A stretch of DNA of 64,000 nt from Azolla caroliniana (taxonomy: Eukaryota > Plantae > Polypodiophyta), in assembly GCA_043228905.1 (NCBI GenBank), contig JBHGNT010000009.1:11222001-11286000 (forward strand), read 5' to 3'. Numbering within the stretch: position 1 is the first letter of the stretch; every line of letters begins with the position of its first letter. Under the pieces are notes generated by a model. That model was not told the origin of the DNA. It saw only the letters and a list, made by a program, of their open reading frames with translations, and ran no database searches. Of this stretch, positions 2,361-55,991 are shown piece by piece. The position numbers and the translations under genes were made by a program.

Positions 2361-2807
2361 TGTTACCCGGCCGGCAAAGGAGCAGAGACCAAAATGTGAA
2401 AGGGATGGTTATTCGGAATATATTTAATTAAGTAGATTGGATTATAATTATGTAGTGAATGGACGGACCGGAATCGATATGTCGATCTGGATCCAGACCG
2501 ATTCCGAACAGGTGCTGGTTGGCACCGTTTTGTACGCAGCACCGGTGACCTATATAAAGGCCCAGTTACAATGTATAACTTTAATGGAGAATTAATATAA
2601 GCTTCTTGTTTTATCTTCACGTATTGATTACTGTTCTGAATTAATTGTTATATCTTACGCGTGTATTAAGTGTATGCCTTATTGCTAAGTAGCTAATGTA
2701 GTCGAAGTAATCGTTGTGTCTTAAGTTATCTCACTGTAACACCCTTTGGTGAAGTTTATTCCGGAGACACCCTGTGTTAGGCCATTGTCCGGCCCTAATG
2801 ATTAACA
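2361..2807 (+). repeat. 5' LTR of gypsy A
   Basis: TG...CA ends, TATA-like CCTATATAAAGG near 2549, direct repeat of 18324-18770. Confidence 0.95.
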
Positions 2808-3747
2808 CAGTTTTTGGCGACCACGATTCCTGCACAATCGCAGCGAACAACGCTGGGAATGGATGACGTGACCAACGAACGACCCGGTTACGGAGCGTCC
2901 AAGGCGACTTGTTGAACGGCTGAGGAAGCGAGAGGCTTTCCAGCAAGCGGCAGAAGAAATCAGAAACGCCTACCTGGACGAAGGAAGCAGCCTAAGCAGC
3001 CTCCAGGAAGCAGAATCCCTTCTCCAGGCATTGGTAGCGGGGGAAGACGAATCCGAAGCATTTTTGGCATTTGAATCAGGTTCGGACGGGGAATACAGTG
3101 CGCTGACGAACTACCGCAGCAGTAACGACACCCCAGGCGGACCAGAGGACGAGGAGTAGGATACTTTGCCGACACCAGAACCCGAATCGACAAGGCTAGA
3201 AACTCTGGTACCAGAAGTCGACCACACTCTGGAACCAGAAGTCGACAACGAGAGACCTCCGACACCGGAAGTCGAGGAGGAGAAGCCTCCGACACCACAA
3301 GAGGAGCAGGAAAGACCTCCGACGGTGACAGAAGATCGGGGAAAACCTCCGACACCACTAGAGGAGGAACGACCACTGACACCACCAGCCCGTGTACCGA
3401 CACCAGACGACGATATGTCATTCCAATATCCCAAATACCAAGATGATCCGGACGTGGAAGCCCACATCCATGCGTTTTAGCAGACTTAGGAAGCCAACCA
3501 TGTGTCCCAACGCTTAAATGCAGCCGAAGAGGAACACTCAAAACAGGCAGAGTTTGGCATGACCTTGGAGGGACCGGCCGCCAGATGGCACCGAACACAG
3601 GATCCTAGCACCATCCCCACATTTGAAACATTAAAGACAAAATTCTTGCATTTCTTCCACAAGGAGATGGACCAGCGGGAAATGGTCAACTTATTTTACA
3701 ATATCCGGCAGGAACCAACGGAGAACATCCAACAGTTTGTCATCCGG

Positions 3748-4434
3748 TGTCGCGTTGTTACGCGCCTGCGTGGAGAACAAGGTGGGACCACTGGGGTCTT
3801 GGACCGAGGAATAGGTGAGGAAGCGAAAGGAGAGAGAGAGAGATACACGCTCACACACGTATAGACAAAAAAGCGCGCGGGAACGCAACCCAACAACACA
3901 AGAGACACAAGTTGAGCAGGAGATAGGGTAAAAGGGACGCGTAAATAAATATATGTATGCAGACGACTAGAACGGTTACAGCCGATCAGGTCGGCGAGAC
4001 GGGTGTCGACGCATGATCACCCACGCACATAGGGGAGCAAGATGGAGATTCTGTCGGAAGCGCACGGGCGTTCGACGGGGCAGAATCAGCCTCTTGAGAA
4101 CCTGCGCAAAGAAAGCTAAGGAGAACGACATAGGAGAAGAGCTCGGTCCCAGTCCGACAGCACTTCGTCCCCTCTAACGCGCGATACCTTCTCTCCCCCG
4201 TCTCCCTCTCTTTTATAGCTCAAGGAGGGAGGCCGTCTTGCCCATTTACATCACATTAATTCTTTGTCCTTTCGGACAGAGATACTCCTCAATTCTCCCT
4301 ATAGAATATTGCTACCTAGGATTTAACCCTTGCGCATACCTATCTTCTTTACGACAAGTGACGTGCCCACGTGTAAGGGCCGGTTCACACACATTATACA
4401 CGGTTTGCGCCTGGGGACGGTTTTCTTCACGACA
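3748..4434 (-). repeat. 3' LTR of element B
   Basis: Direct repeat of 9607-10293; on the minus strand it reads TGTCGTGAAG...CGCGACA. Confidence 0.95.
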
Positions 4435-4510
4435 TCCGCCCCCACCTAACCGCGCATCCACCGGTATGCGCCAAAGTTGGGTTCCTACGGGAGAAAACCG
4501 ATCCTTGCTT

Positions 4511-7439
4511 TTATTCCTTGTACATGCCCCCTAGGTCCGGCTCCCCGTCGTGCCGTTTCTTGAACGCTTTGATCCTCTTCCCCGCTACCGGTATCGCCAT
4601 TCTCGTACCGTCGAGCTCTGCGAGATGGTACGTCCCATTGCCGTTGGCGCCTGTTACTACGTAAGGCCCGAACCACCTCCTCGCAAACTTCCGCGTGGCC
4701 CTGTGTTGATTGTCGAGGCTGTTGTCGTAGACTAGCACCCAGTCGCCTTCCTCGATCTTTCTTGGCCTGGACTTGTGTGTTTGGTCGAACCGGGCTTTGT
4801 TCCTTATCCTCGCTACTCGTAGTTTCTCCGTGACTCGCTCTACGTCCTCCGGCCTCCGCTCGAGCTGTCGAATCCGCGCCGCCAACAGTTCCTCCTGGCT
4901 CATCTCATCCCTCCAGTCCACCATGGCCCACGAGGAGATCGTTCGCTCTGCTAGCATGATCGGTTTTTGTCCGAACATCAGCTCGGCCGGCATGAACCCG
5001 GTTACCGAACTGTGCGTGGTCCAGTCCGCCCACAAGGCATAAGGTAGCAGCCGTGGCCAGTCCCTGACTCGGCCTCCGCACGCCCGTACTAGCGCTTTGA
5101 CAATTGGCCCGTGTCCACGCTCCACCTTCCCATTCGCCTCCGGATTGTACGCCGTGGTGAGCGAAAGTTTGACTCCTAGCCGGTCGAACAGCTCTTCGGC
5201 CTCTTCTGCGTCCAACTCACCACGGTCAGCCACGATCTTCCCTACGCACCCGTATCGGCATACTACATCCTCAATCAAAAACCGGCACACGGCTGCCGTC
5301 GTCTTGTTCTGCAGGGCTCGGCCTTCAACCTGGTTCGTTAGATCTTCCCGAGCTAGCACAAGATACCGCATCTGTCCTACCCCCATTGGCATCGTCACCA
5401 AATCCACCATCCACTTGAAGTGGACGGTCGGAGGGTAGGTCAGGTGCAGCTCGTCCCGATGTCGGATCATGGAGTGCACCTGACAGCTTTCGCAAGTCGT
5501 CACGAACCGATGGTCCCGGCCACCAGTACTTCCCCATTAGCTTTTCGAACGTGGCCCACCTTCCACGGTGTCCAACCCACGGGCTATCGTGGTACGCCGC
5601 CAGCAACTCCTCATGTTCCTCCTTTACCGCCGAAACGATACCCCAGAGCTCGCGTTTAACCTGGGCGTATCCTCGTTGTTGCTCGCTGAGGACCTTCGCG
5701 CCGAACTGGATCGGGAAATGCATGTCGTCCTCGTCCTCCTGGTTGACGACCCATCCGATCCCGGTCGGACTCGTGTCTACCGTTACGTAAACTGGAGTGC
5801 TCCGTCCGTAGACAGCCTTTCGGAGCGCCGGAGCCGCGGCAAGTGCTCCCTTCATCTTCCGGACAGACTCCGTATGCTCGTCTCTCCACTCGAATTTTTG
5901 CCCCTTTTTCAGCAACCCGTATAACGGCTCCGCGACGTGAGCGTAATGCGGGATCCATATATGGTAGAACGCGCACGCTCCCAAGAACCTCCGAACCTCC
6001 GTGACTGAGCTACAGTCGTTCTTCATCGTGGAGATGGCTTCTACCTTAGTCGGAGACGGTTTCCGGCCGTACAGCCCGCATAGGTGTCCGACGACCATGA
6101 TCTCTGATTGCCCGAAGGCCGATTTTCCCCCGGAGAAGGTGAGCCTCGCGCCCTCCAACCTTTGGAGCACCTTCTCGCAGTCATCGATGTGCGCCGCCAC
6201 GAATTTCCGGCATCCGTCCGGTCCAATCGTCTCGTCCCTTTCCTCCATCGGGTATCCTTTGATCGGGACATCGTCCAAAAACGGCATGGTTATGTCCGGG
6301 ATACAATCCCTCAGCACCTTGTTCATTGCGTTCACCATGTGAGCCACCGAGTTCGTCCCTCCTTGCTGCAGGGTACACATCCGTACTAGGCCGAGAGGAG
6401 TTCGCATTGTCGTGATGTCTCTGCTCTCTACAGCGAGCTGGAACTGATCGTACCCCGAGTAGAGATCACCGACCGAGTAAATCGACCTTCCGGCGAAGGC
6501 CTCCGCGAACTCGTCTATTGTCGGTCCGATTCCTGCGTTTCGAATGGTCACCTTGTTGACCGGCTGCAGGTCTTGAATAAAGCGCAGCATGTCGTCCTTC
6601 TTCGGCACGGTAAACCACCGATTCGAGTATGGGGCACTCGACGGTTCGAGGATTCCCATCTCCACCTTCTGCTTTAACAGCTCCATCAGCTTCGGGATGT
6701 GAGCTCTGGGTACTGGAATCGGTTTGAGACTCCACGGCACATGCGGTACCGTGAATATCACCATCATTTCCACGACTGTCGGGTCTACGCACCCAATCTC
6801 CTCCGGTGAGAATGCGAAAGCCTTCCCGTGCCTTCCGAGCATTCCCCGAAAACGGTCCTCTTCCGCCAGCAGTAGGAAGCCGCCCCCACCGATTTTGAGC
6901 TCGCGTAGCGTTATATCGGTGAACGTGTGTCCTATGCGGGCCGGATTTCGTAAACTCGGGTCCGACACAACCCCCTTTATTCGCAACTCGCTGCCCTCCG
7001 GCAAGGGAGCCGCGACTGGCCTCACCTTCCGGTCCACAGTCTTGTACCTCGTGTCCAGCCGGGCGGTCCGATCTGACTCGAGCCCTCTACTGAATTCCGC
7101 GATGACTTCGTACATCTTTTTCGAACATACCGGAATCGTCCGGTCCTCTTTAAGGACTCCTCTACCTACCTCTCGCAGCTCCCCCAAGGTATCGTTGAAA
7201 GAGACCGCCTCCACGGCTCCGTTGATTTCCTCTCCAAGGCCGAGGACGCCACATGCCCGAAGTCGCTCCTCCGCCCTTTTCTTCTTCCGTCCAACAACGT
7301 CAACTATCGTACACCCTCCGTTGTCGGAGAACCAAAATTTCCTACTTATAGTACAGGGATTCTTCGCTATCATACACTTGTGGGGTTTTCCCAGAGTGTC
7401 CGGACTATCGCGGCCCCACACAATGATAGCCCTCTTCAA
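4511..7439 (-). pseudogene. pol (RT, partial RNase H, integrase) of element B, in the -1 frame relative to gag-PR
   Basis: YKTVDRKVRPV, DLYSGYDQ, FLDDVPIKG, VDTSPTGIGW, VDLVTMP, YNPEANGKVERGH, RWFGPY; frameshift near 5510; internal deletion near 5622. Confidence 0.9.
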
Positions 7440-9562
7440 AAATCCTCCCAGCTTTCGCCCCCGAGGGTCTCGCGGTTCCTCTCATGGTTTGGTCTCACCG
7501 TTAGGAACTGGACCGAGTGGCGCCCATCCTGGCTCTTGACCCTTGCATAGGCCGAGCTGTTGTCCAGCACCTTGGTCTCCATCCGTGCTGCCGTGATGTA
7601 CGGTTCTCCTAGTATAACCGGGTGTGAGGACGTCTCCTGCACGAAGAACTGCTGGTCAATCTCGACATCGCCGATCTTTACTCGTACATTCGGGCAAGCT
7701 CCATGCAGTTCTTCAGTGGCGCGCGTCGCTGCCCGTATCTTCCACCCATGCTTGGTTTTGATCGGCCATTTCCCCTTCTTATAGAAGTCCATGGACATCA
7801 AATTGATTTCTGAACCGTGGTCCACCAACGCCACCACCGGTTCATGAACATCTCCGATCTTCACGGGGGTCTCCATGGTCGCTCTGGCCCAGTGCGGCCT
7901 CGAATAGTGGCTCTCCGCCAACTTGTCTTCCAGCGCCATGTCCTCTATGTGCGTCGTCCGCACCTCCACCGGCTTCTCCAGTTCTGTCTCCGTCGACAGC
8001 CTCTTCCTCTTCACCAAGTCTACGATGGAGTCGTGGAACTCCTTCTTGGCGATCCCGAGCACTTCCCTCAGCGACAGTTCCACCTTGTTGTCGAGGATTC
8101 GTTCTTCCAGGACCTTTCGCAGGTCCGTGGATCTTTCGATTTCTGTGCCCAGCCAGTACCCACCCTTCTTGGGATTATCCTGGGCGCCGGTTACAACGGC
8201 CTCATTCCGTCTTTGCCCGAACCGAGTTTCATGTCGCTGCGAGGGCCCGGCCCCTCCGGTTTTCCCTACCCGCTTGTCCTCCACCAGAGCCTCGTAGTTT
8301 TGACAAGCGGCTTCGACGAAGCCCGTCCTTTCTTCCACCGGGTCACTCCACCCAGTTACCTCCCGGACCCGTTTTTCCGCGCGGTCCACCTCTTCTTTCC
8401 TCAGTCGTGCGCTGGCGAGGCCTTCGAGCATCGTTGGCCAGAACCCGGCTTTGTTCGTCTTCGGGGCCTCGCCACCTCCGACCCGAATACCAATTGACGC
8501 CGAGTAGTGGACGGTCTCCGCGTCACGAGCCGCCGCCTCCTCCATCAGCCTTTTCATACCCCCTTGCCCAACGTTCAGGTTCAGGGCCCTTCGGGTCTCG
8601 CTGGCGTGCACCCAACCGTTCCACAGGTACACCACGTTGCTTCTCATCGCCTCGGCGAAGTCCCCGCAGTCCTTCCAGATGTGCCCAACCGCGTCACACC
8701 ACATGCACCTGTTTTCAGCCAGAGGTCGTCGGTCACGGGCCTGTTCGCCACCATCCCTTCGTGCCTAGGCGATCTGGAGATCCCTTACCATCCGCATCAG
8801 CTCCTCCAGAGCTGCTCCCCCGGACGAGCCCTTGACCACGCCGGTTGAAGCCGATCCGGTCTCGAGCCAATCTCGGGTCTCTTCCCTTCGCGTTGGTGGT
8901 ATTGGCTCAAACTTCCTTACTGCGACAGAGCCCGCCCTTGTCGATCCTTTGTCAACCCATTCCCGCCGTTTGTCGAAACGGCCACAGACCCTTTTCACCA
9001 CGGCCCAGTCGGCCGTCAGCCCGTCATCAGTCTCCAATAGGAGGCCTACCTGCTCCCGATCCCGCTCGTCAACCGACTTAACAAACAATAGGACACGGCT
9101 TGTGTCCAAAACGGTCCGGTCAAGCACCGAGAGGCGCGCGAAGCGTTCCTCAAAATCCCGAAGGAGCACTGACGCGTTCCTTCCTTTGTCGGGGGTCTCC
9201 ACCCACTCCATGAAGTCCCGCTTCGAAAGTCGAAGTGCATCTTCAAGCCCGTATCTTTCGAGGAGCCGACCTTCGAACTCCTCCTAGGTCCGGCTCTCGG
9301 CTCGTACCTCGAGCACCTCCGTATGGATACCCGGCATCACCACTCGGGGGAATCCGGCTAGACGCCTCTCTTCCGGAATGTCCCTCATTACCATCTCAGC
9401 CCAGTAGGACGCCAAGTAGCTCGTGGCATCCTTTCCACTAAACCGGCCGATCGTACCGACAACCGCCTCGATAGCCCTATCAAGGGTGCCGGTGCCTTCG
9501 CGCGCACTCACTATACGGTCTACATCCGAAGCCATGGCTTCTGTGAGGTCCAACCCCCTCAT
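7436..9562 (-). pseudogene. gag-protease of element B
   Basis: Three ORF pieces (9562-9284, 9211-8765, 8704-7436) separated by TAG stops and one frameshift; CxxC-GH-C knuckle; aspartic protease ALVDHGSEINLM and VILGEPY. Confidence 0.88.
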
Positions 9563-9585
9563 CTTCTACTCCTCTGCCGCCTGTT

Positions 9586-9602
9586 TCACGTCAGGTTCAC
9601 CA
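9586..9602 (-). promoter_or_regulatory. Primer binding site complementary to the tRNA-Trp 3' end (element B)
   Basis: Minus strand TGGTGAACCTGACGTGA matches the plant tRNA-Trp 3' end (...TCACGTCGGGTTCACCA, recalled from memory) with one mismatch; 4 nt from the LTR. Confidence 0.75.
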
Positions 9603-9606
9603 AATA

Positions 9607-10293
9607 TGTCGCGTTGTTACGCGCGTGCGTGGAGAACAAGGCGGGACCACTGGGGTCTTGGACCGAGGAATAGGTGAGGAAGCGAAAGGAGAGAGAGAGA
9701 GAGACACGCTCACACACGTATAGACAAAAAAGCGCGCGGGAACGCAACCCAACAACACAAGAGACACAAGTTGAGCAGGAGATAGGGTAAAAGGGACGCG
9801 TAAATAAATATATGTATGCAGACGACTCGAACGGTTACAACCGATCAGGTCGGCGAGACGGGTTTCGACGCCTGATCACCCACGCACACAGGGGAGCAAG
9901 ATGGAGATTCTGCCAGAAGCACACGGGCGTTCGACGGAGCAGAATCAGCCTCTCGAGAACCTGCGCAAAGAAAGCTAAGGAGAACGACATAGGAGAAGAG
10001 CTCGGTCCCAGTCCGACAGCACTTTGTCCCCTCTAACGCGCGATACCTTCTCTCCCCCGTCTCCCTCTCTTTTATAACTCAAGGAGGGAGGTCGTCTTGC
10101 CCGTTTACATCACATTAATTCTCTATCCTTTCGGACAGAGATACTCCTCGATTCTCCCTATAGAATATTGCTACCTAGGATTTAACCCTTGCGCCTACCT
10201 ATCTTTTTTATGACAAGGGACGTGCCCACGTGTAAGGGCCGGTTCACACACATTATACACGGTTTGCGCCTAGGGACGGTTTTCTTCACGACA
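9607..10293 (-). repeat. 5' LTR of element B
   Basis: Direct repeat of 3748-4434, adjacent to the PBS. Confidence 0.95.
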
Positions 10294-13200
10294 CCGGTTC
10301 CAGCGGATACACAATCAGCTCAGCCGGACACCACCGGAGGAAGAAACAAAGGCCATATTCTTAGCAGCACTCCGGAAACCCTTACGGACGGTGTGCACCG
10401 TCATCGATTTCCGCACCAGCAGCATAGATCAAGTGATTGACCGAGTTTGGGAAATGGAAAACTTGAGTTCATGGCTAACCATGGGCGCACTGCAGCGTAC
10501 GCTACCGACGGAAGAGGACCTCCGTTTCCGACAAGCAGTTCAATGTATGATATGCCTGAATGCCGGACATTCAGCGTTGGAATGCACCATGCGTTCCCAA
10601 TGCTTGCTCTGCCACTCCAGAAGTCACACAATGGAACGGTGTGAGTATAACTTGTTAAATCGACAAGCACCACCGGTCCGGCAAATTGAACCACGGAGCA
10701 ACCGAGAGGAAGAAGAAGAACAATGGTGGCGAGAGGAGCGCTACCGGCCAGCACAAGATGTCTGGTATAGCGATCGAAGACACGCGTATGACCGGTATGA
10801 TAGACAGGATAGGTACCAGGACTATAATGGATGGTATGAAAGATATAACCGGGATCGCTCCCCTGGTTACAACCACCGACAGGACGACTATGGCAAGGAT
10901 GAAGATCAGCCCCGGCAAGGATACCGCACCAAAAAGAATTTCAATAAGAAATGTCATTTCAACAGAAAGGGGGGTCATCCACGAGAACCGGAAAAGGGCG
11001 CTCCGAGCAGCCAACCAAACCAAAACCAAGCACTTGCCCCCGGTCCGCCACCAAGCACACACGCCGAATCCAGCAATGCCCGGAAGCCGTACTGCTATTA
11101 TTGCCAGCAAGAGGGCCACTATAGTAATCAATATCCGGCAAAGAGCTACGACAAGCGACCAGCGGTGAACATGGTAGACACGGAAGTCGCGGACCTACAA
11201 CAAGTCACTACAAGATCAAAAGGCAAAGCCACGGAGTGGGAAACTCAAGAAGCCATCCGAAAGCAGGCAACCGAATGGGTGAAGAAGGCAAATGAGCGGA
11301 ATGCAGCAGAGCTCGAACAAAAGGTGAATGCCGAAGAACTCGCCGGCTCGGGGCAACCCGAAAACCCAACAGGGCAGGCGTTACAAGAATGCCAAATCAC
11401 ATTGCCGTTAGGCCGGCTATTGCAACTGGTACCACGGTTCACGGAAGGACTGAAGACCGGAAGGACGACAGCTGACACACCACCGGCTCCGGCATTCTTT
11501 TCAAATCCGGAGGAAGGACCGGCAGTGGTGGACACAAGCAGTCCAGCAATCATAGCCATCGTGAAGGGAAAAGAGCTACCCGGCATGATTATCGATGGAG
11601 GATCCGGCGTGAACATGATCAGCCTCCGAACGTGTAACACGCTAGCGGATGGCGGACACTAGCTCAGTACGGCCGACCGGATTAATACGCGATATGGAAG
11701 TGACCATCGGGGGTCACACATTTCGCATTTCCATAGTTCTCTAGCTACAAGCTCAGGGAGCTTACCCACTATTGTTGGGACGGCCCTGGTTTAAAACGGC
11801 ACACATAAAGCAAAATTGGAGGAAGAACATAATTACGTTCCAGTGTGGAAAAGCGAAAGTACGAGTACGGACTCAACCACGATCCAGTACCGGCAAGGAA
11901 TCAATGTCGCTATATGCGGAATTTGTTAACATGCTGGAAGGATTGGCGGACGAAGAGGTCGATCAATACTTACAGGAAAATCCGAAGATCGTACCTCTGT
12001 TCGAGATTGATGTAGCCAAAGCAGTATCACCGTACGTACTGCAACCGGACGAGACCGACAAGGAACCGGATAAAGAGGCAATCCGGGAATTACGGCAAGC
12101 ACAGGAGGCACTGGAAAAAGAAATGGCAGTATCACAGCGCGTGAAAGCATCCCAGCTAGAAGAGGTAAACCTAAGTACCACAGAGGACACAAGACCGGTG
12201 CACATCGCCAAGGAAATGACTTCGGAGAACAAAACGGCAATGATCACACTCCTAAAAGAATTTCATGATGTGTTCACCTGGTCCTACGAAGACATGCTAG
12301 GACTCGATCCTCAGTTATATCAATACCAGATACATCTTAGCAAAGACGCCAAACCGGTAGCGCAACGGCGTTACCGGATGAACCCGAATTACGCAGCAAA
12401 GGTCAAAGAAGAAATCGACAAGTTGCTGAGAGTGGGTTTCATCTGACCGGTAAAGAAAGCCACATGGCTTAGCCCGATAGTGGTAGTACCCAAAAAGAAC
12501 GGTAAGATCAGAGTGTGCGTCGACTACCGGAAATTGAATGCGGCTACGGTAACAGACGCCTTCCCACTTCCATTCACGGATGGAGTCCTGGATGCAGTCG
12601 TCCGTCATAAGGTGTACAGTTTTCTGGATGGTTTCAGCGGCTATAATTAGATCCGGATGCACCCCGCCGACCAGGAGAAAACAACTTTTGTCACCGAATG
12701 GGGAGTCTTTGTTGTCGTAGTGATGATGTTCGGACTGAAAACAGCAACGGCACCGGCAGGTGTTTTTGGATGACTTCGTTGTTTATAGCTAGGAAGGGGA
12801 TCACCTTCAACACCTCCGACTATGCCTAGAAAAATGTAGGGTTTACCGACTAAGCCTGAACCCGGCAAAATGTGTGTTCAGAGTAACCAGCGGAGCATTA
12901 TTGGGCCACATAGTGAGCAAGGACGGTATCGCAGTGGATCCGGACAAAGTAAAAGCAATCCTGGAGGCACCGGCACCAGCCACAGCACAGGCACTAAGCC
13001 GGTTCTTAGGACAAATTTGGTGGCATAGCCGAATGCTCCGGTATCTGGCAGACCTGGCTACACCACTGCATGCCGCAGTACATCGGACACAAAAGACCAA
13101 GCTTACCGGGCACTAAAAGTATTGTTGTCACAAGCGCCGATGGTGCAACCTCCGGATTGGTCCAAAGAGTTCCATGTGTTCGTTGACGCGTCCGACATTG

Positions 13201-15049
13201 CAATCGGGAGCGCACTGATGCAACTGACAGAACCAAAATGGTACCGGCTAGTCTATTATGCCAGCCGGAAGTTGTCCCAAGCGGAACATAATTATTCCAC
13301 GACGGAAAGGGAGGCTTTGGGAATGATCTACAGTGTCACCAAGTTTAGACACTATCTGTTGGGAAGGAAATTTTCCTTTCACGTAGATCATTCGACGCTC
13401 CTCTATTTGGTGTCCAAAGCATCACTTGCCGGTAAGCTGGCCCGGTGGACGTTACTACTGCAAGAATTCGAGTTCGAGATATTCCACCGACCCGGCATAC
13501 AGCATGCGGTAGCGGACTATTTATGCCGGCTAGATTCCGGCGAAACCGGTGATGGAGTCCCAGACGACTTTCCGGATGCAGAGCTGTTTAGAGTCATAGC
13601 AAAAACGGCAACAGACAGTTCGGTCGTAGAGGAAGACAAGTGGCTCACCAATATGCACCAATTTCTGAGCATCGATTTACCTCTGGAGGAGATGAATAGA
13701 GACGAAAGGAAACGCTTAGCGGTTCAAAGCTGGCACTTCTGTCTAGTGCAGGACACACTGTACCACAAAGGCGCAAATGGCATATGGCGGCGTGCAGTGC
13801 GCAGTGATGAAAAGGAAGTAATATTGCGCGAGGCACACTATGGCGTGGCCGGAGGACATTATGCCGGAGACGCTACGGCAGGGAAAATATGGCAGAGTGG
13901 ACTATGGTGGCCAACAACATTCAAAGATGTAGTCCGGTACGCTAAAGAATGAGACCTATGTCAACAAATGGGGCAACCAACCGAACAAGCCAGAATGCCT
14001 CACCTGCCCGTGCTACTGTTAGAACCATTTCAGAAATGGGGGCTAGATTTTGTCGGTCCGTTCAAACCATCGACAATGAGAACCGGCAACCGGTACATGA
14101 TCGTCACTACGGATTATTGCACGAAATGGGTGGAAGCGAAAGCACTACGCGACAACACCGCGACATCCACGGCAAAAATTTTATATGAATGCATCTGGTG
14201 CCGATATGGATGTCCGAAAGAGCTCATAAGTGACCACGGTGGGCACTTCTTAGGGCAAGTAGTGGAAAGTTTGACGACATTTTATGCGGTGGTGCACAAA
14301 CGGAGCCCTCCCTATTATCCGCAAGCCAACGGATTAGCAAAGTCAACAAATAAAACACTACAGAATATCTTGCGGAAAATCGTCAATGAGAACCAGACGG
14401 ATTGGGATACAAAGCTGCACAATGCACTCTAGGCCTACCGAACGGCATATAAAACAAGTATCCGCACAACACCGTTCTGCTTAGCATTCGGATTAGAAGC
14501 AGTGATGTTGGTAGAGTTCCAGGTCCCAAGTTTACGAATACAGATTCGGGAACGCCTAAATGAGAAGGAATCGGAAGCTATCCGGTTAAACGCGTTGTGC
14601 GAATTGGAAGAACACTAGCTAGCCAGCATCATGCACCTAGAACTAGAGCAGCGACGAAGGAAGGCGTTCGTGGATCGTCACCGAAAAGGGAACGAAAAGA
14701 TGTTCAGCATCAGTAAGCCGGTACTCGTATTCCAAACCCGGATGGGTAAGATGCTGGGAAAGCTACGGTTTCGGTGGACCGAACCATACTAGATTACGCG
14801 AGAGTTCAACGGTTCCTACCAATTAGGGACACTCGTCGGCAAGGTTCTGGGTAAATGGGTCAACGGGTTCCGACTCAAACCATACAATGGACCCATGCCA
14901 AGAAACCCATTTGAACAAGTGAAGGGCGACACAAAACCAGACACCGGTAAGTCGAAAGCGCCGACAAGCGGTCCAGCGTCCGGCAAGAATCACAATCCGG
15001 ATAGGGGTCCAATGGGACCGGTTGCTAATTAGCAAAACCATTTATTATC

Positions 15050-15121
15050 AAAAAGAAAGAAAGAAAGAAAGAAATCAAATCAAATCAAATCAAATCAAAT
15101 CAAATCAAATCAAAGTAAATC
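15050..15121. repeat. Compound microsatellite (AAAG)n(AAATC)n between pol and the extra ORF of gypsy A
   Basis: Directly visible. Confidence 0.9.
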
Positions 15122-15458
15122 ATGCAAGGGCGAGGGGTGAACGGACACATGCAAAAAGAAGGAGTGAACAAGCACTTTGAAAAGGTATGTAGTGGGCTAT
15201 TAATAGGGTATTAAACCGCCGCCACATGGCACGTCATTCTATTTTAGTACACGACGTGCACATGCGCGGGTAATGAAAAAAGAAAAAACAGGCGCCAACA
15301 TGCAACAAGAAGACCCCCGCCACATAGAAACCCTCACATTTCGCAAACAGAGGAGCACAAACGCAGACAGGTGATTAAAGATCAGCAAACGCGAACCCAC
15401 GCACACAGAGACTCCTCACACACAACCCTCACCAACGCTCACTGACCTCGACGAAGCC

Positions 15459-18270
15459 ATGGACTGCCAAGCACTCTCTGAAGCAGCCAAGAAGTGGCTA
15501 AGGAAACACGGCTTAGAGGGTTTCCTCACCATCATGGAGGCGCCACCGCACCGGGAGGCGAAAAAGATAGTCAAAGAAATCGACACGGAGCTGATTACTG
15601 AGGAGGCCATCCATGCGTTGATTGGCCTTCTGGAAGGGGGAATCTTCACTATCGACAACCCTACCCCGGAATAGCTCCAAAAATACTTTGGGGAATACTC
15701 TCTGGCAAGCAAGGCCTACCGGACACAAGGCGGCGAAGATCCTCTCTTTCGAGAGATTGCCCGGGTGCTCCATGAATTCGGACATGTATACCCTCGACCC
15801 CCCTGCATGCCCCAGAACCGGGCCAGCTTAATCATAGCCACATATGAAGGCGTGAAGGTGGACTGGGCAGTACTGATTGCGGCCATCCACTCTGTTAGAG
15901 GCAAAGAGGGTCGGAAGATATGGACGGCGTTGGCGCAATCACTCACTCTATTGGCGCCACCTATCGAGCCCGTCAAGACCACGAAGCGGGGAAGAACAAT
16001 TGAAGGCACCCCGAAAACAACCTCTAAACGGCAACAGTTGTTGGCGTCTAAGGCAACCAAAGGGAAGGCGGCTGACACGGACCAGGCGGCAAAGGAGTGT
16101 GCCAACAGGAAGCGGCAGGCGGAAACGCAGGACGAGCCACCGGTGCAGCCAATCAAGATTAGGCTTAGCCGACCGGTTCAACAAGCGTCGGACCTCTTGG
16201 CAGCGAAAATCAACATCGAGACTTAGGAGGAGGAACCGTTAGAGCACCTCTAGCGGCGCCAGAAGGCAAGCACATCCGAACATGCCGGGGAGCGTTCGGA
16301 CCCAAAGAAGGATGGAACGCTTGTACCCCGCCCTGAGCAGCCCGCACCAAGGATAGAACCGGCCACAGAGCCCCCTCCACAACAACCTCTACCGGCGGGT
16401 CAGGATACGGCAAGACCCGATATGCAAGCGCCGGAAGTATAGTTGCCGACCCCACCGGCAGGCCAAGAGCGTTCAGAGGCGGAGCGGCCAACGGAGCGGC
16501 AACCAAAAATGGCAAAGTGGTCACCAACAAGAGCCAGAGTTGCAGCTCGACGCAACTGGACAAAACCGACCACTAGCCAGCGACACCAATAGCCAACCCT
16601 CTAGGCAAACGCAACAACAAGGCACCGGCAGCCAATGGCTCCGGTGGATTGGAGAACAGATTGATGGAGTGGTACACTACATAGAGGCGGAAGAGAAAGC
16701 GTAGATGGATCGGTTGCTTGTCACGACCAGAGAACTAGAGACGACCCGGTCAAGGATCCGCAGCCTAGAACAAGACTTGGACCTAGCCACAGAAGAATTG
16801 GCCAAAATGGCCTTAACTGGACCACAGCTCCAAGCACCGGTGACCCCGGTCGATGTACAGAATAAAGAAGCACCAGCACCTGTACATAGCAATAAGACCC
16901 TGGAGACGGAAACAGTCCCAGAGATTGTGGTAGCGCAAGCAAAGGAGCTTGTTGAATTAAGAGATGAACTGGCCGCACATGAAGCATTACGGACCCGAGA
17001 GCGGGACTTGAAGAAAGCGGCAGAAGAAGAGCAACGAAAGACTGCTGAGAACCTCCGCAGGGCAGAAGAGAATCTGCGGAAAGGACATCAAGCCTATGAC
17101 TGGCTGAAGGAGGAGAAAGAGAAGGTGCTACAAGAAAAGGAGAAGCTGTGACGGATGGCGGAAACAGAGATCGAAAGGCTGAAAGAAGAACTCCGTCAGC
17201 AAAAGGTCCGGGAAGACCACGCTCGCCGGCAACTCAACCAAAAGCTGAAGCAGAAAACCGATGATTTTGAGCACCTGCATCGGGACTACAAGCACCTGGA
17301 TACAGAGCATAAGAAATAGTAGGAGAAGATGGTAGAGCTCCTACAGGAGGTACATCAGGTTGAGACGGCGTTGGCGGAGGAACGGGCTGAAAGAACCACG
17401 CTGCTGGAGGAAGCCGCGCAAGAACGGATGGAGTTGCATAAGCAGCATTATGAAGAGAAGGAAAGAGCGACGATGATCTTGCAAAGGCTGCATAACACTT
17501 ATCAAACCCAACTGTCACATTGCCAGGAGCAGGAGGTGGATACGGTGGCACTCATCAAGCAGTTGAAGGACGAACGGCAAGCCGCAGAGGACAAATCAAA
17601 GATGGGATTGGAGCGGATCCAGTTCATTGTCCAGGCATGGAGGAACAAGACCAAATGCTTGATTGACGAAAGCTCCACGCAATGGTGGGACAAATGGGCA
17701 AAGCACACAGCCGAGCTCCAGTTGCTACGGGCAGACACGGAAAACCGGAAGAAGGATGGCGACGACTGCTACATGCTAACGAAGGAGGACTTCACCGCCG
17801 TCAGAGAGGACTTAGCCGAAGATTTTATAACTATGGCGGAGGAGTAGGTAGCAGTGGTCCGGCAACTTGTAGCCCAGCTAGATGATGATCGACTGGATGC
17901 TCAAATCCAGTTTGAGAGCTATGAGCGGACCAGGCTACGGAGAGAAGAAGCAAAGCAGGCGGCGATCGTCAACCTCAGCGATGAGGAGCCATCACCAGAG
18001 CAAGGACCGGATGGAGACAAGGCCGGGACGAGTCAACCGGAGTCAAATCCAACGGAGCAGCTAACGGAGGAATCACTGCCACAACCGCCGGTACCGGGAG
18101 CCGAACAGACGCCCTCTCAAGAGCAACAGCAACCACAACAGCAACAACAATAGCAGCCACAACAGCAACAACAATAGTAGCCGCAACAACAACAACAACA
18201 ACAACCGAATTCTGAACAACCATTGGATACCCTAGAGCATAGTATTATGGACATCTTGGACAAAGGCTAA
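15459..18270 (+). pseudogene. Degenerate additional ORF (about 900 codons) of gypsy A: globular N-terminus, Pro-rich linker, long coiled coil, poly-Q tail
   Basis: ORF pieces 15459-15674 and 15765-16226 share one frame; 16705-17151, 17329-17847 and 17854-18153 share another; most breaks are TAG/TGA stops; the frame ends at TAA 18270, 53 bp before the 3' LTR. Confidence 0.75.
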
Positions 18271-18323
18271 GGGCCGGATAGTGGGATTCGACGTACAAGG
18301 TACTGTCCCACGGGCGTGCCATG

Positions 18324-18770
18324 TGTTACTCGGCCGGCAAAGGAGCAGAAACCAGAATGTGAAAGGGATGGTTATTCAGAATATATTTAATTAAGTAGAT
18401 TAGATTATAATTATGTAGTGAACATACATACCGGAATCGGTATGCCGATCTGGATCCGGACAGATTCCGAACAGGTGCCGGTTGGCACCGTTTTGTACGC
18501 AGCAACAGTGACCTATATAAAGGCCCGGTTACAATGTATAACTTTAATGGAGAATTAATATAAGCTTCTTGTTTTATCTTCACGTATTTATTACCGTTCT
18601 GAATTAATTGTTATATCTTACGCGTGTATTAAGTGTATGCCTTATTGCTAAGTAGCTAATTAAGTCGAAGTAATCATTGTGTCTTAAGTTATCTCGCCGT
18701 AACACCCTTTGGTGAAGTGTCTTCCGGAGACACCCAGTGTTAGGCCATTGTTCGGCCCTAAGGATTAACA
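18324..18770 (+). repeat. 3' LTR of gypsy A
   Basis: Direct repeat of 2361-2807, followed by TSD GAGAT. Confidence 0.95.
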
Positions 18771-20410
18771 GAGATGTCCCTCAGAGTCATGTCGGTCAGA
18801 GAGGAATCATGAGGAATGTCTTGCATGCGCCGACAATCACCAAGAGCTTGGTGTTGGTCAGATAAATTGTCGACTAGGGCATGCAAGTTCGATTTACTCA
18901 CCTCGGGTGCTTCATAGAGGAAGAAGGCAAGATCATTGCGCAAGGGCGCAAAGAAGGGACGATGTTTGTCCTCCAAACAAATGATGTTGGAACCGCCATT
19001 TTCGCAAAGGGGCAAAAAGTCGAATAAGATATCGACTTGTGGCACAAGCGGTTCCGCCAGGTCAACTTCATACGGTTTCGAGAGATGTAGACGAAAAACA
19101 TCGTTTTCAACTTGCCGAAATTCAGTGACAGAAAGGGCTAGGTCTGCGAAGCCTACCAATTAGGGAAGCATCACCAAGTTCCGTTCCCAAATAAAAGAAA
19201 TCGGAGCTGAAACAAGCTCGATTTAATCCATTCGGATGTATGGGGATTGACGTAGAACGTGAGTATTGGTGGAGGTCGTTATTTTGTAACCTTCATCGAT
19301 GACTACACTCAGCATAGTTGGGTGTGCTTGATCAAGAAGAAAAGCGAAGTCTTCTCCTGCTTCTTGAAGGTGAAAAGCCTTGTTGAATGGGAGACCGATC
19401 AAAAGATCAAGTGCCTAAGGTCTGATGGTGGAAAAGAGTACTTTTTCGACCAGTTCTCTGGCTATATATAGAAGGAGGGAATTCGAAACGAATTCTCTTG
19501 CAGATACACACCAAGGCAGAATTGTGTGACCGGGTAGAAGAATCGAACAATCGAAGAAGCAACAAGGGCAATGCTTGAGGAGAAGCATATGTCGAAGTTC
19601 TACTAGGTCGAAGCAGTTAGAACTGTCATTTACCAGTAGAATCAGACATCTGCAAATTGAGGAGTGTCGCCACATGAGCTGTACTTCGGGAAGAAGCCGA
19701 GTTTGGCAAACTTGAGGGTATTCAGTAGCATAACATATATGCATATGCCGAAGGAGAAGCGCCGGAAGTTAGATGCCAGAGCCAAGAAGGGTGACTTGGT
19801 TGGCTACTCGGATGAGCAAAAGGGTTATAAATGTTATAATCCCTGAACAAAAGAGGTCTGAGTAAGCTGAGATGTCATTTTCGATGAGTTGGCTTCGTGA
19901 TACTTGTCTTCACCTCCACCCCCATCCACTCCATTCCGAATTCTGAGGATGTGGCCAGTGAGGCCAAGTTTCCCCTGGAAGATGAAGCAATCAGAGCTCT
20001 AGAGGAGAGTCTGATTTCATTTCAGCTAAGCGGGCCGAATGAAGAGCTGTGTCGGGAAGACCAGTAGGATGAAGAGGCGGCGAGTAGTGGAGACTTGGTC
20101 GTGCTCTCCCCGTGCAAGGACCCGAGGAGACGGTTCAAGCGCAAAGAGAAGGGGAAGAAGAAGATGTCGGAATACGACACTGGCAAGGAAGAGTCGGACC
20201 GAAGTGAATCCAACTCCAGAAAGAGCAAGGAGGGACATCTGAAGACGAGGTAGAAGTCAGCCAAGAGGGCCATGAAATCAACGAACCGGAAGTTACGTTG
20301 ATCCGCCTGCGAGAAGAATCCCGTGATCCGGTGCAAATACAATGATTCTATGGCGCATCATTATGCATACATGGAAAAGATGGCAACAATGCGTGAGCCA
20401 GAGGGTTATG

Positions 20411-32600: not shown

Positions 32601-35461
32601 AACTAACCTAATTTACTCTCACCTCCCAATACATTTACGCTTGTGCACTTCTATGTACATCAAATTCGAAGGAGACTTATTCCTCCATGCATTGGCATGG
32701 GATCTACAGGTAAACCTTTAGTCCCAAATAGGATGGCATTAACCCCAGGTCTGTGAGCTTGAACTGGGAACCTCAGCTTCCACTTGATACAACCAAGATG
32801 ACCTTCAGTGCTCCCAGTTAGGAACAACATGGCCACGTACATCACAAGTACTATCATATACACACCTTCTGTTTTGATATAGAAGGCAGGATTTGTTAGT
32901 CATCCCTTAAATCTGCCATCAATGAGGAATCCATTATTAACTCGTACCTAACTATTGGTGCTTGCTTCAACCCATATAAAGCTTTCTGCAACTGCGATAT
33001 CCTTCTTTCTGAATCAGGCAGCTCAGAATACTGTTGATTTCTCCAGAATTTGTGTTCCTCGAGAATATCCATTCAGAAAAGATGGCTTCATATCCATTTG
33101 GCATATTGGCCACTTCCATGCCATAGACACTGCCAACATAAGCCGAATAGATCTGAGCCGTGCAGCTGGAGCAACTTATTCCTCAAAATCAGCTCCCCTA
33201 CATACCCATTCAGTCTTTCTTTATATTTGGCTACAGTCCAATCAGCGTTGTCCGTAGTCTTAAAGATCTTCAAGACGTCATCTCGATGACCTTCCTTTTC
33301 ACTTCCATAAGTTCCAAATCTGATTAAGTGTCAACAAACTATGAGATTTAGTGCTCACTTTTCAACTGCTCACTTGCCAAAGAAAGGAAATCATCATCAT
33401 CTTAAAACCAAGTTCTCACTTGCCAAAGATGATGACCAGCTAAGTGCTCACTTGCCAAAGAAAGGAAAATCACCTTTCGAAGGGCAAGCTGCCATCTCAT
33501 CATCATCACCTCACAACTGAAAGCTTCGACGTTTACTTTATAAATGAACAAAACGAAATCTTATCATCTGAAATGTTGACAGGAGCTTCAAATTGATGCA
33601 GAAACTTTATAAATTCCGAGATCTTTGGTGAAAATGCAGACTTGAGTTTGCATTTTAATTCCTGTTATGTTGTTTCATGCTTTCTTGCAATAAGCATGTC
33701 ATCGACATATAAAACCAAAATATTAGAACTGCCACTAGCTTCCTTTGTCATATAGAGACAAGGATCTGCCTTACTTTGAGTGAAGCCATTTGAGAGCATG
33801 AAAGATTCAAATTTCTTATACTATAGATGTGGGGATTGTTTCAGCCCATCGAGGCTGTGTCGAAGTTTACAAACTAAATCATTTCCTGGAATCATGAACC
33901 CTTCAGGCTGCAACATATAAAGCTCCTCATCCAGGTTTCCATGAAGGAAAACCGTCTTTTCATCCATTTGTTCTAACTCCAAATCCAGAAAGGCTGAAAT
34001 AGCGAAAAGTGTGCTAAATATAGTCATTGGATTACTAGAGCAAAAACCTCTTGAAAATTAATTCCTTGTACTTGTTTGTACCCTTTGGCTTGTAAACAAG
34101 CCATACACTTGGGTTTACCTTCTAGAGACTTTACCTTGTAGATCCACTTGTTGGGTAGCTCTATAAGATCCCATGTGTTATTCTCATGGAGTGCTTTGAT
34201 CTCCTCTTGGATAGCAAGTTCCCACTTGTTAGAATGCTCACATATCCTAGCCTCTTTAACTGTGAGGGGCTCCCCTTTATCTGTTAAAAAGAATTTGATG
34301 AAGAGATGGATCATACCTTTGGGTTGGACACCGCAACCGTGTTGATCTCCTAACCCAATGATCTACATTATCTGGAAATGGTTCGAAATCTAATGGAATA
34401 TTGTCTTGCTATTTTCAGCAGCTATTTGTTCATGTGTAGGTGGCTGTAATTGATCTTCATCTTCAGGGTCTAAAATTTATTGCTACAAGTCAATCAACGA
34501 CTTTACAAATGGGCTTCTGACCACGACATAGCAGGGGTTACAATAGATCGGGCAATAGCAATTTCCTGTGCACATAGGACTTCAGAACCCTTGTCATTGA
34601 CAGATAAAGACCATTATCTCCAGCCATTGCAAGTGCTTCCCTTGCTTTGGAGACCTCTCCATTCTAGATCGACCTATGTTAGAGATATTTCAAAAAAGAA
34701 TTACAATCTGATTTGAGAATCTTACATGTACCGATAGGTCGAGATCTTTCAAAAAATAATTACAATCTGACTTGAGAATCTTACATGTACTGATAACAAG
34801 ATTCGCTAGTCACTTTTTATCTTATTTAGTTTGTTTACTCAGTAACGTTTATTTTGGGTTTTGTTCTCAAAGATGATATAACAGTTAAGATATATTCTCT
34901 TGTTTGGTCTTATAGGCCATGTCGGCCTCTTGATGTGAGAAAAGCTGTTAATAACAGCAGCGGAAGACTTAAAACAAAATAGGCACAGCCAAGCTGTGAG
35001 AAGGCTGTTAGACAGCAGTAGAAAAAGCCAAGGAATAGAGCTTGTTTTAAGTAGCAAAAAAGAAAATGAAAACTTATACAAAAGAGGCTGGTATAGCCTA
35101 TTTATACAAAATTGGGGAATGTGGGTGAAATGGCTGTTTGGTAGTTTAAGTGACTCTTGTACTACCAAACAGGTACAAAAAACTAGGAATATCTTGGAAA
35201 AGGTAGAAGAGAGAAAAGGCATTTAAAGCATTGCAGATTCTAGAGAGAGAAGGCATTTAAAGAGTTGCAGATTCTAGAGAGAGAAGAATCTGAGAAAAGA
35301 GAGAATGTAGTACAGAGATAATAAATATGAAAGAGAGTGCAGGTCTGGAGCTGCCACCCTCCAACACCTCCTCTTAGCTCCAGAACGGCCATCAAACATT
35401 GAGTCGACCGAGGAGTTGATTAATGGCATGCCTTGGAAGCGGGAAATATATATATATATAT

Positions 35462-35534
<73 letters not shown>

Positions 35535-47200: not shown

Positions 47201-47420
47201 CAGAATCTATGCTTTCCAACCCATTGCTCACCATACAGTCATGAACATGGATTGCGTAAGACAAACTGCTCTTCTCTTCCTTCTTTTTTCTGCATTCTAG
47301 CATAATAGCTATGGTGTCTTGTATGCAGGGGAGATCTGAATTCCTCTCTTGAAAGGTCTTGAAGGTACCGTCTACCATGAAATCCTCACAAAAGGAGGCA
47401 ATCGTTTGGCATATGTTCAT
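44214..47420 (-). CDS. PLS-class pentatricopeptide repeat protein with a C-terminal E-type extension and no DYW domain (probable organellar RNA-editing factor)
   Basis: Uninterrupted ORF of 1082 codons (first ATG at 47420; true start uncertain). Repeated NTLIDMYAKCG / DVVSWSSVISG / PNEVT triplets; ends WINLLAASRKLGN...AFVLMANIYA. Confidence 0.93.
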   Translation of the reverse strand: MNICQTIASFCEDFMVDGTFKTFQERNSDLPCIQDTIAIMLECRKKKEEKSSLSYAIHVHDCMVSNGLESIDSVKNHLVPLFVDCGSLAAAEQAFHSLHIRSEHSWTSLIKAYTHVEFCSLQAFTLLDQMEQDGVQPSRHTFMHLLSFCGSFSKLEMGQNIHSKMIKEGHYHHDINELFLTNALVALYGKCGLLIDARSVFNQAPIRDIYLWNTLISLYVEQNIGEEAILCLKSMEIEGISLDATTFRHILKACVSTGDYARAKFFHHMLIAKGCEMETFLIESLVDIYTSWKGFVDAEAVVKALPVPDVESSIALMAAYSKSGLSNRVLDCKKQLDSDGLFLLNPTVFVYSLKACGDLRDLDHGTRLHLEVEKYGFGEPTVASALITMYSKCGSLMEAQKVFDEMNGRDTVTWTIMLVAYAEHGFMQEALGTLCDMQVDKARLDSVACVCGLKACAAIKDMAKGREIHAEVIKEGFERSLLVCNTLLDMYAKGGLLMEACDVFNELFVRDVVAWNTLIDAYVGNELYDEALGFLENIRNEGIAPNESTLVNVLKACCYAGYRNEGQKIHTYIVELGFERDAFIGSILLDMYCRCGYLIEAQHLFDAFPVRTAVTWSILISGYTVNGLASEALKHSEQMQLEGIYADVDVILCILKACSNIGSIKKGREAHSYIMKVGFQDNPIVGGALVHLYAKCGQLFEAEEILSMLSVRDVVSWSGLIEGFVDLGLAEHALCCYNKMQLDGVSPNAITLFPILKACGDIGALGIGREIHMEAMKEELESDIYVNNTLIDMYAKCGAILEALDLLDEQPQLRDVVSWSSVISGCVDNGEIDTAFSLYKEMQEEGVAPNEVTIMSLLKAYGSISALEAGRRIHAQMKLNFEGDAMFTTALLDMYAKCGCMIDAQVLFNTISKVDIVALNALSNGYARHGQSDLVIYLFERMKEEGIRPDESTFLNLLIGCDHDGFVGKGQEYFYSLCRENSSSDKHRDCMVNVLGRAGRLEEASLLMQEMPLQTQGIGWINLLAASRKLGNLEAGKLIFEWATDVSKMNSAAFVLMANIYAETRDAD

Positions 47421-55857: not shown

Positions 55858-55991
55858 ATATCCTCATTGTCGCTCGCTTAATACCTTGGCTCCGAACCGG
55901 ATGGGTTAGCATGTACCATCCTCTCCTTCTTGGTTGATGACCCATCTGATCCCTATTGGACTCGTATCTACCGTCACATAGATGGGCACCA

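Follow-up and report, generated by a model that had tools for sequence, protein, structure and literature searches.

The window analyzed here, a 64,000-nucleotide stretch of the Azolla caroliniana genome, carries on its minus strand (3748-10293) a damaged copy of a Ty3/gypsy LTR retrotransposon, element B, recognized by its LTR pair and by Pfam domains. Its 5' LTR (9607-10293, TG...CA) and 3' LTR (3748-4434), both on the minus strand, share 96.4% identity across 687 bp, and a 4-bp target-site duplication, CCGG, flanks the element at 3744-3747 and 10294-10297. The primer-binding site (9586-9602, minus strand), presumably tRNA-Trp-like, lies 3 nt after the LTR and recurs in a second element of the window, element D. 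The gag-protease (gag-PR) region (7436-9562, minus strand), traced by tblastn with the intact relative P0132, has premature stops in gag, is open from 8764 to 7436, and terminates in Glu-Asp-Phe-stop. The pol region (4511-7481, minus strand) is in the -1 frame and comprises a linker, the reverse transcriptase (RT), part of the RNase H and the integrase; its ORF, 7481-5325, starts 15 codons upstream of the gag stop, and pol carries an internal deletion and a frame break near 5600-5500. Pfam matches were found for DUF4100 and an Asp protease, both weak, and for RT, RNase H and integrase.

Element B is a Phygy-type Ty3/gypsy element, placed by REXdb-listed traits rather than by REXdb sequences. 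These traits are a 4-bp NCGN duplication, a tRNA-Trp primer in 81% of elements, and the lack of a chromodomain and of an extra RNase H, while the REXdb table gives the Phygy ORF organization as not determined. The CCGG on both sides of element B has the NCGN form, and Pfam detected no chromodomain in the ORFs of element B, which has an internal deletion, nor was one present among the precomputed domains of its pol homologues. The named homologues are from Physcomitrium, Riccia and Adiantum.

At the junction of the two frames, the slippery heptamer G_GAU_UUU (7439-7445, minus strand) stands in X_XXY_YYZ register with the gag-PR frame. It is followed by a 6-nt spacer (7433-7438, minus strand) that includes the gag-PR stop TGA (7438-7436), and then by a predicted H-type pseudoknot, stem 1 of which (7402-7432, minus strand) pairs GGGCTATC (7432-7425) with GATAGTCC (7409-7402), and stem 2 of which (7379-7420, minus strand) pairs TGTGGGG (7420-7414) with CCCCACA (7385-7379). 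The initial annotation had described the gag-PR end GAG GAT TTT TGA, the -1 pol, and both stems 6 nt past the heptamer at these very positions, and all were recovered on the minus strand. The same holds for the cassette it reported in element D (58233-58295, minus strand), where GGATTTT (58295-58289) and TGA (58288-58286) precede a 9-bp stem 1 of CGGGCTATT (58283-58275) with AATAGCCCG (58259-58251) and a 5-bp stem 2 of TGGGG (58268-58264) with CCCTA (58237-58233). Element D comprises, over 53371-60436 of the minus strand, a damaged gag-PR (60436-58286) and pol (58286-53371), with a primer site at 60476 and CCGG on the 5' side. By a scoring scheme of our own that counts stacking only, the pseudoknot score of B or D was equalled by 0/60 dinucleotide shuffles, and in other pol windows by 0/31 for B and 1/31 for D. 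When 80 nt of element B were folded without pseudoknots, another fold was preferred (-26.6 kcal/mol), which keeps stem 2, loses stem 1, and relies on a 3' partner specific to B. Since elements B and D are both damaged elsewhere in the window, the case for frameshifting rests on their relatives.

Among the relatives, GGATTTT stands directly before the stop codon in 63 of 77 scored sequences, and one further copy, in L066, is followed by a stop 5 codons later. Clustered by nucleotide identity, the heptamer-bearing sequences give 43 groups at 90% and 17 at 80%. There is free variation in the base preceding the heptamer and in the stop codon (TAG 31, TAA 18 and TGA 14 among the 63), and other Asp-Phe dicodons are spelled G GAT TTT in only 1 of 23 cases in 16 representatives. 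The standard site is missing from 13 of the 77 loci, two of which (L054 and L057) carry a variant discussed below, the other 11 appearing decayed. Of the 49 sequences having an RT match in range, 42 carry pol in the -1 frame, the remaining seven being L054, L057 and five broken copies. The cassette is thus conserved across the lineage, as the initial annotation had supposed. In L081, a distant element, stem 1 is a different one of 11 bp, stem 2 is GGGGA/UCCCC, and pol is open in the -1 frame over 907 codons; L081 is one of two stray contigs from a scan of prokaryote genomes, the other of which (L082) stops short of the junction. Scans of viral contigs for elements bearing the cassette returned no loci, and Rfam held no matching family, its three weak matches falling far under the gathering scores.

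Protein calls lead to the same layout. The 93 directly called long gag-PR proteins end in DF (67), NF (3), GF (3) or VFD (1), or in [MVR]P[LF] four residues past a DF (17), two being cut short, and none continues into RT. The NF and GF ends, which are known as protein alone, fit other slippery heptamers. Named gene models from moss, liverwort and fern likewise end in or near Asp-Phe. Intact members with protease and RT in one frame would have spoken against the frameshift; among the 83 directly called pol proteins, 82 have the two in different frames and one has the protease in frame with pol, and the two are likewise apart in all 93 gag-PR proteins. A remote relative, P0288 (53% RT identity, one member on one contig), read as protein, combines protease and RT in a single ORF. 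In Riccia, 26 of 37 gene models hold both in one predicted protein; in the 22 of these 26 that were inspected, the protease-RT joins fall at varied points and the junction peptide is absent, and, on the protein models alone, we read the fused models as predicted introns laid over a frameshift.

Both stems of the pseudoknot are conserved and covary. Over 28 sequences, 92.5% of 252 stem 1 cells are paired, and four of the nine pairs are altered on both sides. Nineteen cells changed on both sides; 0/500 shuffles scored as high, and pairing was at most 43% when the stem was slid. In partner-swap permutations on 19 representatives, 1/100000 were as good as the true partners for stem 1 and 102/100000 for stem 2, both stem covariation controls ignoring kinship among the sequences; L043 fits stem 1 poorly, ranking 19 of 19. 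Synonymous change is reduced at the cassette, the difference being 0.24 in the 15 opening pol codons vs 0.40-0.66 in the other 35 windows. Between the cassette and RT, 8/8 pairs have a lower pN than pS when the linker is read in the pol frame, which indicates that the linker is coding; its lack of stops is given no weight, the 18 representatives having been chosen for intact pol. Three of the elements (L006, L012 and L017) have no Met within the first 86-103 pol codons. As judged from sequence divergence, the whole linker up to RT is shown to be under purifying selection in the pol frame.

Frames, heptamer conservation and stem covariation support the programmed -1 frameshifting put forward in the initial annotation. 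Phygy gag-PR ends on a conserved heptamer, a stop and a covarying H-type pseudoknot, where a minority of ribosomes very probably slip by -1 and thereby make Gag-PR-Pol. A ribosome holding Asp-tRNA and Phe-tRNA on G_GAU_UUU would be held up by the pseudoknot that follows after 5-6 nt, and the tRNAs would re-pair on GGA_UUU after a one-base backward slip. Unshifted ribosomes would terminate at once or within about 5 codons, so that Gag-PR would be in excess and protease output would equal that of Gag; we infer abundant Gag-PR and rare Gag-PR-Pol.

The variant elements L054 and L057 (80% identity in protease DNA) form a clade with 100/100 support nested inside the -1 elements. Their site is the 8-nt AG_GUU_UUU, the same as the arterivirus -2 site and of its general form RG_GUU_UUU, and the invariant GG of stem 1 follows at 5 nt, versus 6 nt elsewhere. 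In both, some 820 codons of pol stay open in the +1/-2 frame, with pN 0.07 vs pS 0.57. The arterivirus CCCANCUCC motif was absent from the 75 nt after the L054/L057 stop, where a pseudoknot is found instead. As a separate observation, the sub-clade is a high-copy one.

From these features it appears likely that L054 and L057 use a -2 slip. As they differ from the standard layout by one base in or beside a homopolymer, their pol frame might instead reflect a one-base assembly error, a dead mutation of the U run, or a +1 slip, which we regard as possible but doubtful. An error is opposed by the clade support, by two open pols under selection, by the QVFD end of the P0122 cluster, found in 6/6 members that reach the end among 15 of 35 members listed, and by sequencing runs: no one-base insertion at the U run was listed in run X1 (depth ~360, 5% threshold) or in X6 (depth ~1400-1600, 1% threshold). 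A bridging contig of X6, at depth 1005, showed no gap; rare variants are lost from contigs. For a +1 slip, re-pairing would fail at GUU_U and, in L057, also at UUU_G. P-site re-pairing would, for its part, be poor following a -2 slip. Furthermore, in many -1 families a C-G pair can lengthen stem 1 to give an effective spacer of 5 nt, and L081 has a 5-nt spacer yet its pol is in the -1 frame; spacing alone therefore cannot separate the -1 and -2 groups.

Splicing of an intron across the junction, as in Ogre, with the structure serving splicing or packaging, would also join pol to gag-PR. It has a precedent in the functional intron of Ogre (excerpts of PMC12786077) and its GAG-PROT/RT break (REXdb table), the Riccia models draw splices across the junction, and the L054/L057 junction, with its U run and CTAG|G, resembles a 3' splice site. 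We nevertheless consider it improbable, given that the linker is coding in the pol frame, with pN below pS in every pair compared, that an AG after the site is missing in 3/16 representatives and lies in differing phases in the others, and that the joins of the gene models are mutually inconsistent. By a crude score, the sole two strong donors common to L054 and L057 within 900 nt upstream are in phase 1, and the CTAG|G acceptor needs phase 2; splicing also leaves unexplained why the heptamer is fixed in X_XXY_YYZ register. Separate production of pol, by re-initiation or from a sub-genomic RNA with an internal AUG, is more improbable still: a Met is nearly conserved some 20-25 codons upstream of KYKTV, a motif lying ahead of RT, but about 100 codons upstream of this Met, back to the cassette, are under purifying selection with no conserved earlier Met, and the heptamer and pseudoknot would be left unexplained.

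We thus return to frameshifting, and lean somewhat towards a joint reading, in which a lineage-wide -1 shift after the protease would have been switched, in one amplified sub-clade, to -2 by AG_GUU_UUU and a closer pseudoknot. If true, this would amount to a -2 event that occurs in nature, is driven by RNA structure and serves an essential polymerase, and it would put the spacer-tension model to a natural test. In reporter work, as part of one study describes, -2 shifting is best at spacers 1-2 nt shorter than for -1 (PMC3458567). The -1 elements and L054/L057 make up a natural pair, with the same pseudoknot and different slip sizes, that could test this spacer effect in an evolved signal. To the initial annotation the analysis adds the Phygy lineage and the sub-clade with pol in the +1/-2 frame; neither the -1 signal nor the -2 variant of Phygy was found described in the literature searched. 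Control of the Gag:Pol ratio is poorly known in plant LTR retrotransposons, and the cassette is a compact, 70-nt candidate recoding signal for a lineage whose ORF organization REXdb leaves blank. The frameshift layout accounts for broken-looking Phygy copies and for predictor introns at the junction. The cassette family is distributed among ferns, mosses and liverworts, i.e., non-seed land plants.

Among plant elements, excerpts of two papers describe most LTR retrotransposons as having a single ORF, the characterized plant solution being splicing in Ty1/copia (PMC5580714; PMC12786077). The initial annotation's statement that most plant LTR elements are single-frame or broken before the protease needs one qualification: a break after the protease also occurs in Retand and Ogre (REXdb). 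These Tat-clade elements, plant non-chromovirus gypsy elements as well, are split past the protease, a single stop dividing GAG-PROT from RT in Retand, and a stop or a spacer, with an intron, doing so in Ogre (REXdb table), whereas Phygy is distinctive in its overlapping frames with a frameshift signal. According to the summary in PMC5009743 of the 2003 survey by Gao et al., two types of plant element with separate frames were known at the time, both with pol in +1.

Canonical -1 signals, such as those of retroviral gag-pol and coronavirus 1a/1b, consist of a slippery heptamer, a 5-9 nt spacer and an RNA stimulator (in sections of PMC7618472 and PMC5009743). The Phygy cassette resembles them in its in-register heptamer, 5-6 nt spacer, predicted H-type pseudoknot and polymerase in -1, and differs in that its host is a plant LTR retrotransposon and the shift is placed after the protease. 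Parts of one review list G_GA as an X_XX variant in dianthoviruses, some umbraviruses, insect flaviviruses and mesoniviruses, and describe G_GAU_UUU with a nearby stop in pea enation mosaic virus RNA 2 (PMC5009743); the initial annotation had named GGAUUUU as a functional -1 slippery site of dianthoviruses. The dianthovirus and umbravirus sites share with Phygy the same heptamer, closely followed by a stop, and plant ribosomes; their stem-loop, in the same excerpts, pairs with an element about 4 kb away, whereas the Phygy pseudoknot is local (PMC5009743).

Rous sarcoma/avian leukosis virus gag-pol is likewise expressed by a -1 shift with a pseudoknot, at an efficiency of about 5%. In Rous sarcoma virus, the protease is encoded in gag and tRNA-Trp is the primer; one published account instead derives the Pro of these viruses from Gag-Pol. 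They differ from Phygy in their heptamer and in being vertebrate retroviruses, and any likeness would be convergent. Finally, the arterivirus nsp2TF -2/-1 site of PRRSV has the same 8-nt AG_GUU_UUU as L054/L057 and a downstream ORF in the -2 frame; according to portions of two reports, it depends on nsp1-beta together with poly(C)-binding protein and has no RNA structure (PMC7618472; PMC4937337). In contrast, L054 and L057 have a covarying pseudoknot at a distance of 5 nt, and what the shift would yield is Pol, an essential product. From its sequence, the L054/L057 signal would act like the arterivirus signal but is not one.

The junction between gag-protease (PR) and pol in the two gypsy elements B and D is as the initial annotation placed it, all of its coordinates having proved correct on rechecking. 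In element B (3748-10293, minus strand; 687-bp LTRs of 96.4% identity) the gag-PR frame ends GAG GAT TTT TGA, with G_GAU_UUU (7445-7439) in the slippery register; pol (ORF 7481-5325) lies in the -1 frame. An 8-bp stem opens 6 nt past the heptamer. A C-rich sequence 16 nt beyond the stem forms 7 bp with the loop, completing an H-type pseudoknot. Element D, whose protease DNA is 75% identical to that of B, shares the slippery site and has a pseudoknot with stems of 9 and 5 bp; both copies are damaged, and the junction pattern occurs nowhere else in the window. With our own stacking-only pseudoknot score, for which 60 dinucleotide shuffles and other pol windows served as controls, 18 of 20 representatives scored above all shuffles and two were equalled by 2/60, while one other pol window scored equally in 3/20. 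For B alone, a competing fold is present. A CCRG..CYGG hairpin (18 of 62 loci; window 7403-7391, minus strand, and B-like loci) overlaps the base of stem 1, and is possibly a third stem or an alternative conformer.

Element B is flanked by a CCGG target duplication, and its primer site, which lies 3 nt in from the 5' LTR, presumably corresponds to tRNA-Trp. The REXdb table describes the Phygy lineage as having a 4-bp duplication of the form NCGN and, in 81%, a tRNA-Trp primer; its ORF organisation is entered as 'ND' (PMC6317226). From the duplication and primer features and named homologues in Physcomitrium, Riccia and Adiantum, B can be provisionally filed as Phygy. A second direct-repeat pair (2361-2810 and 18324-18773, 93%) brackets B across 2361-18773, and remains of a different gypsy element (gag, RT, RNase H, integrase) lie beside it on the plus strand at 10274-14915, the whole probably representing a nested insertion. 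Within the pol of D, a recent-looking inverted 671-bp copy (55992-56662 versus 60704-61374, 99.4% identical) duplicates the 106-bp tandem array of its 5' LTR region. The window also holds a Ty1/copia element (34933-39355; LTRs ~95% identical, 931-codon ORF ending early in RT) and an uninterrupted 1086-codon PPR protein ORF (44214-47474) with a weak E-motif match.

The structure claimed from B and D was borne out in a wider set. Stem 1 is conserved and covaries across 28 sequences (92.5% paired, both sides changing in 4/9 pairs), with a score reached by none of 500 shuffles, a control that ignores relatedness; sliding its partner lowers pairing to 23-43%. Because the register of stem 2 varies, its loop was paired with its own downstream strand or with that of another family (19 representatives, 100000 permutations, relatedness ignored), and own-partner pairing was matched by 102 permutations, compared with one for stem 1. 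Stem 2 takes the forms GGGG/CCCC, GGGACA/UGUCCC, GGGGCGU/AUGCCCC and AUGAGGGU/ACCCUCAU. In one relative, L081, whose protease identity is 63%, stem 1 is an unrelated 11-bp helix and the -1 pol frame stays open over 907 codons; another, L043, fits the model poorly. Synonymous difference reaches its lowest value over the cassette (0.24 versus 0.40-0.66). L081 and L082 are Phygy-like contigs in a cyanobacterial and a Streptomyces assembly, most likely plant contamination.

The slippery site itself was scored in 77 sequences: 80 loci kept of 152 confirmed in a metagenome scan, plus B and D, less five that run off the contig. GGATTTT stands immediately 5' of the stop in 63 and five codons earlier in one (L066), GGTTTTT stands one codon before the stop in L054 and L057, and the remaining 11 look decayed. 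The preceding base is unconstrained (A 26, C 24, G 8, T 5), the stop codon is likewise free to vary, and GGATTTT-type spelling occurs in only 1/23 other Asp-Phe dicodons. Where RT could be placed (49 sequences), it lies in the -1 frame in 42, in +1/-2 in four (L054, L057 and two broken copies) and in frame 0 in three, all broken and retaining the stop. Among 120 listed homologues (85 with the anchor motif), DF is the C-terminus in 40 of the 55 with a 50-75-residue tail. In 93 directly called long gag-PR proteins, 27 eukaryotic gene models having been excluded by source label, the end is DF in 67, NF or GF in six and VFD in one, DF lies four residues upstream of it in 17, and two are cut short; none reads through into RT. 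Proteins P0137-P0166, P0044 and P0211, which extend four residues beyond DF to end in [MV]P[LF], form a group that takes in Physcomitrium and Adiantum gene models and is known here as protein only. Gag-PR of remote relatives also ends in DF, GF or NF. Such ends, DF or GF behind the protease, are found even in the very distant P0344 and P0317, so that the signal may not be confined to land plants.

Pseudoknot-driven tandem slippage from G_GAU_UUU to GGA_UUU is the simplest reading of these sequences, and very probably the right one. Pol would otherwise be entered at an internal start or behind an intron; entry at the slippery site is likely, since in 8/8 pairs the pol-frame pN of the linker (120-130 codons, from the site to the motif before RT) is lower than its pS, and three families have no Met in the first 86-103 pol codons. 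Against this reading, protease is joined to RT in 26/37 Riccia gene models; among 22 joined models compared, the join points are inconsistent and the junction peptide is absent. The proposed separation of PR and RT frames holds in 82/83 pol proteins called directly, and P0288 speaks against it. This remote relative, a single member, has both in one ORF that retains Asp-Phe at the others' stop position, and reflects either loss of the shift in its lineage or one mutated copy. A real, lineage-wide Phygy frameshift cassette is well supported by comparative sequence evidence.

In the sub-clade of L054 (cassette 2496-2570) and L057 (2834-2910), AG_GUU_UUU precedes the pseudoknot and pol lies in the +1/-2 frame. 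The junction reads CAG GTT TTT NAC TAG. Downstream of it lies the same pseudoknot, with its invariant GG beginning 5 nt past the heptamer instead of 6; the +1/-2 frame runs without a stop for 818 and 820 codons, and the -1 frame shuts within five codons of the site. In a comparison of the two, pol shows purifying selection (RT pN 0.07, pS 0.57; linker pN 0.13, pS 0.52). The pair forms a clade (100/100 support; midpoint-rooted tree, 19 rows) sister to the -1 element L058, and the +1/-2 state therefore looks derived. QVFY and QVFD ends are kept by every listed cluster member complete at the C-terminus (2/2 and 6/6); a third protein ends in WVFP, and its single cluster mate differs. Public DNA runs from two organisms contain sub-clade families at summed depths of ~360 and ~1400-1600, among which no one-base insertion at the U run is listed. 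Two extra T at L054:2499, in one low-depth contig each of runs X3 and X4, would put gag-PR and pol in one frame, and possibly arose by polymerase slippage ahead of the structure. On balance, -2 slippage is the favoured account. Reporter work, in the available text, found that spacers 1-2 nt shorter favour -2 shifting (PMC3458567), an argument that is only partial here because extension of stem 1 would bring many -1 families to an effective spacer of 5 nt, and the spacer of L081, with pol in -1, is likewise 5 nt. The sequence at the junction is also similar to a 3' splice site, but no shared strong donor of the required phase was detected in 900 nt.

No paper describing this signal was found in the literature searched, although subscription journals or supplements may hold a mention, and the signal is undescribed in the accessible portions of two papers on how plant elements are expressed (PMC5580714, PMC12786077) and one on Retand (PMC11963269). 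REXdb, in its available text, records overlapping GAG/PROT frames in Tcn1, Selgy and some SIRE, and GAG-PROT/RT separated by a stop or spacer in Retand and Ogre (PMC6317226). According to the sections available of a 2016 review, those plant elements with separate frames that were known at the time carried pol in +1, and G_GA starts and the exact heptamer G_GAU_UUU are known from plant viruses (PMC5009743). The frameshift mechanism itself is of a known kind; the most surprising part of the finding is the likely switch from -1 to -2 slippage in L054 and L057, whose 8-nt AG_GUU_UUU is also, in the available text of two papers, the -2/-1 shift site of PRRSV (PMC7618472, PMC4937337).
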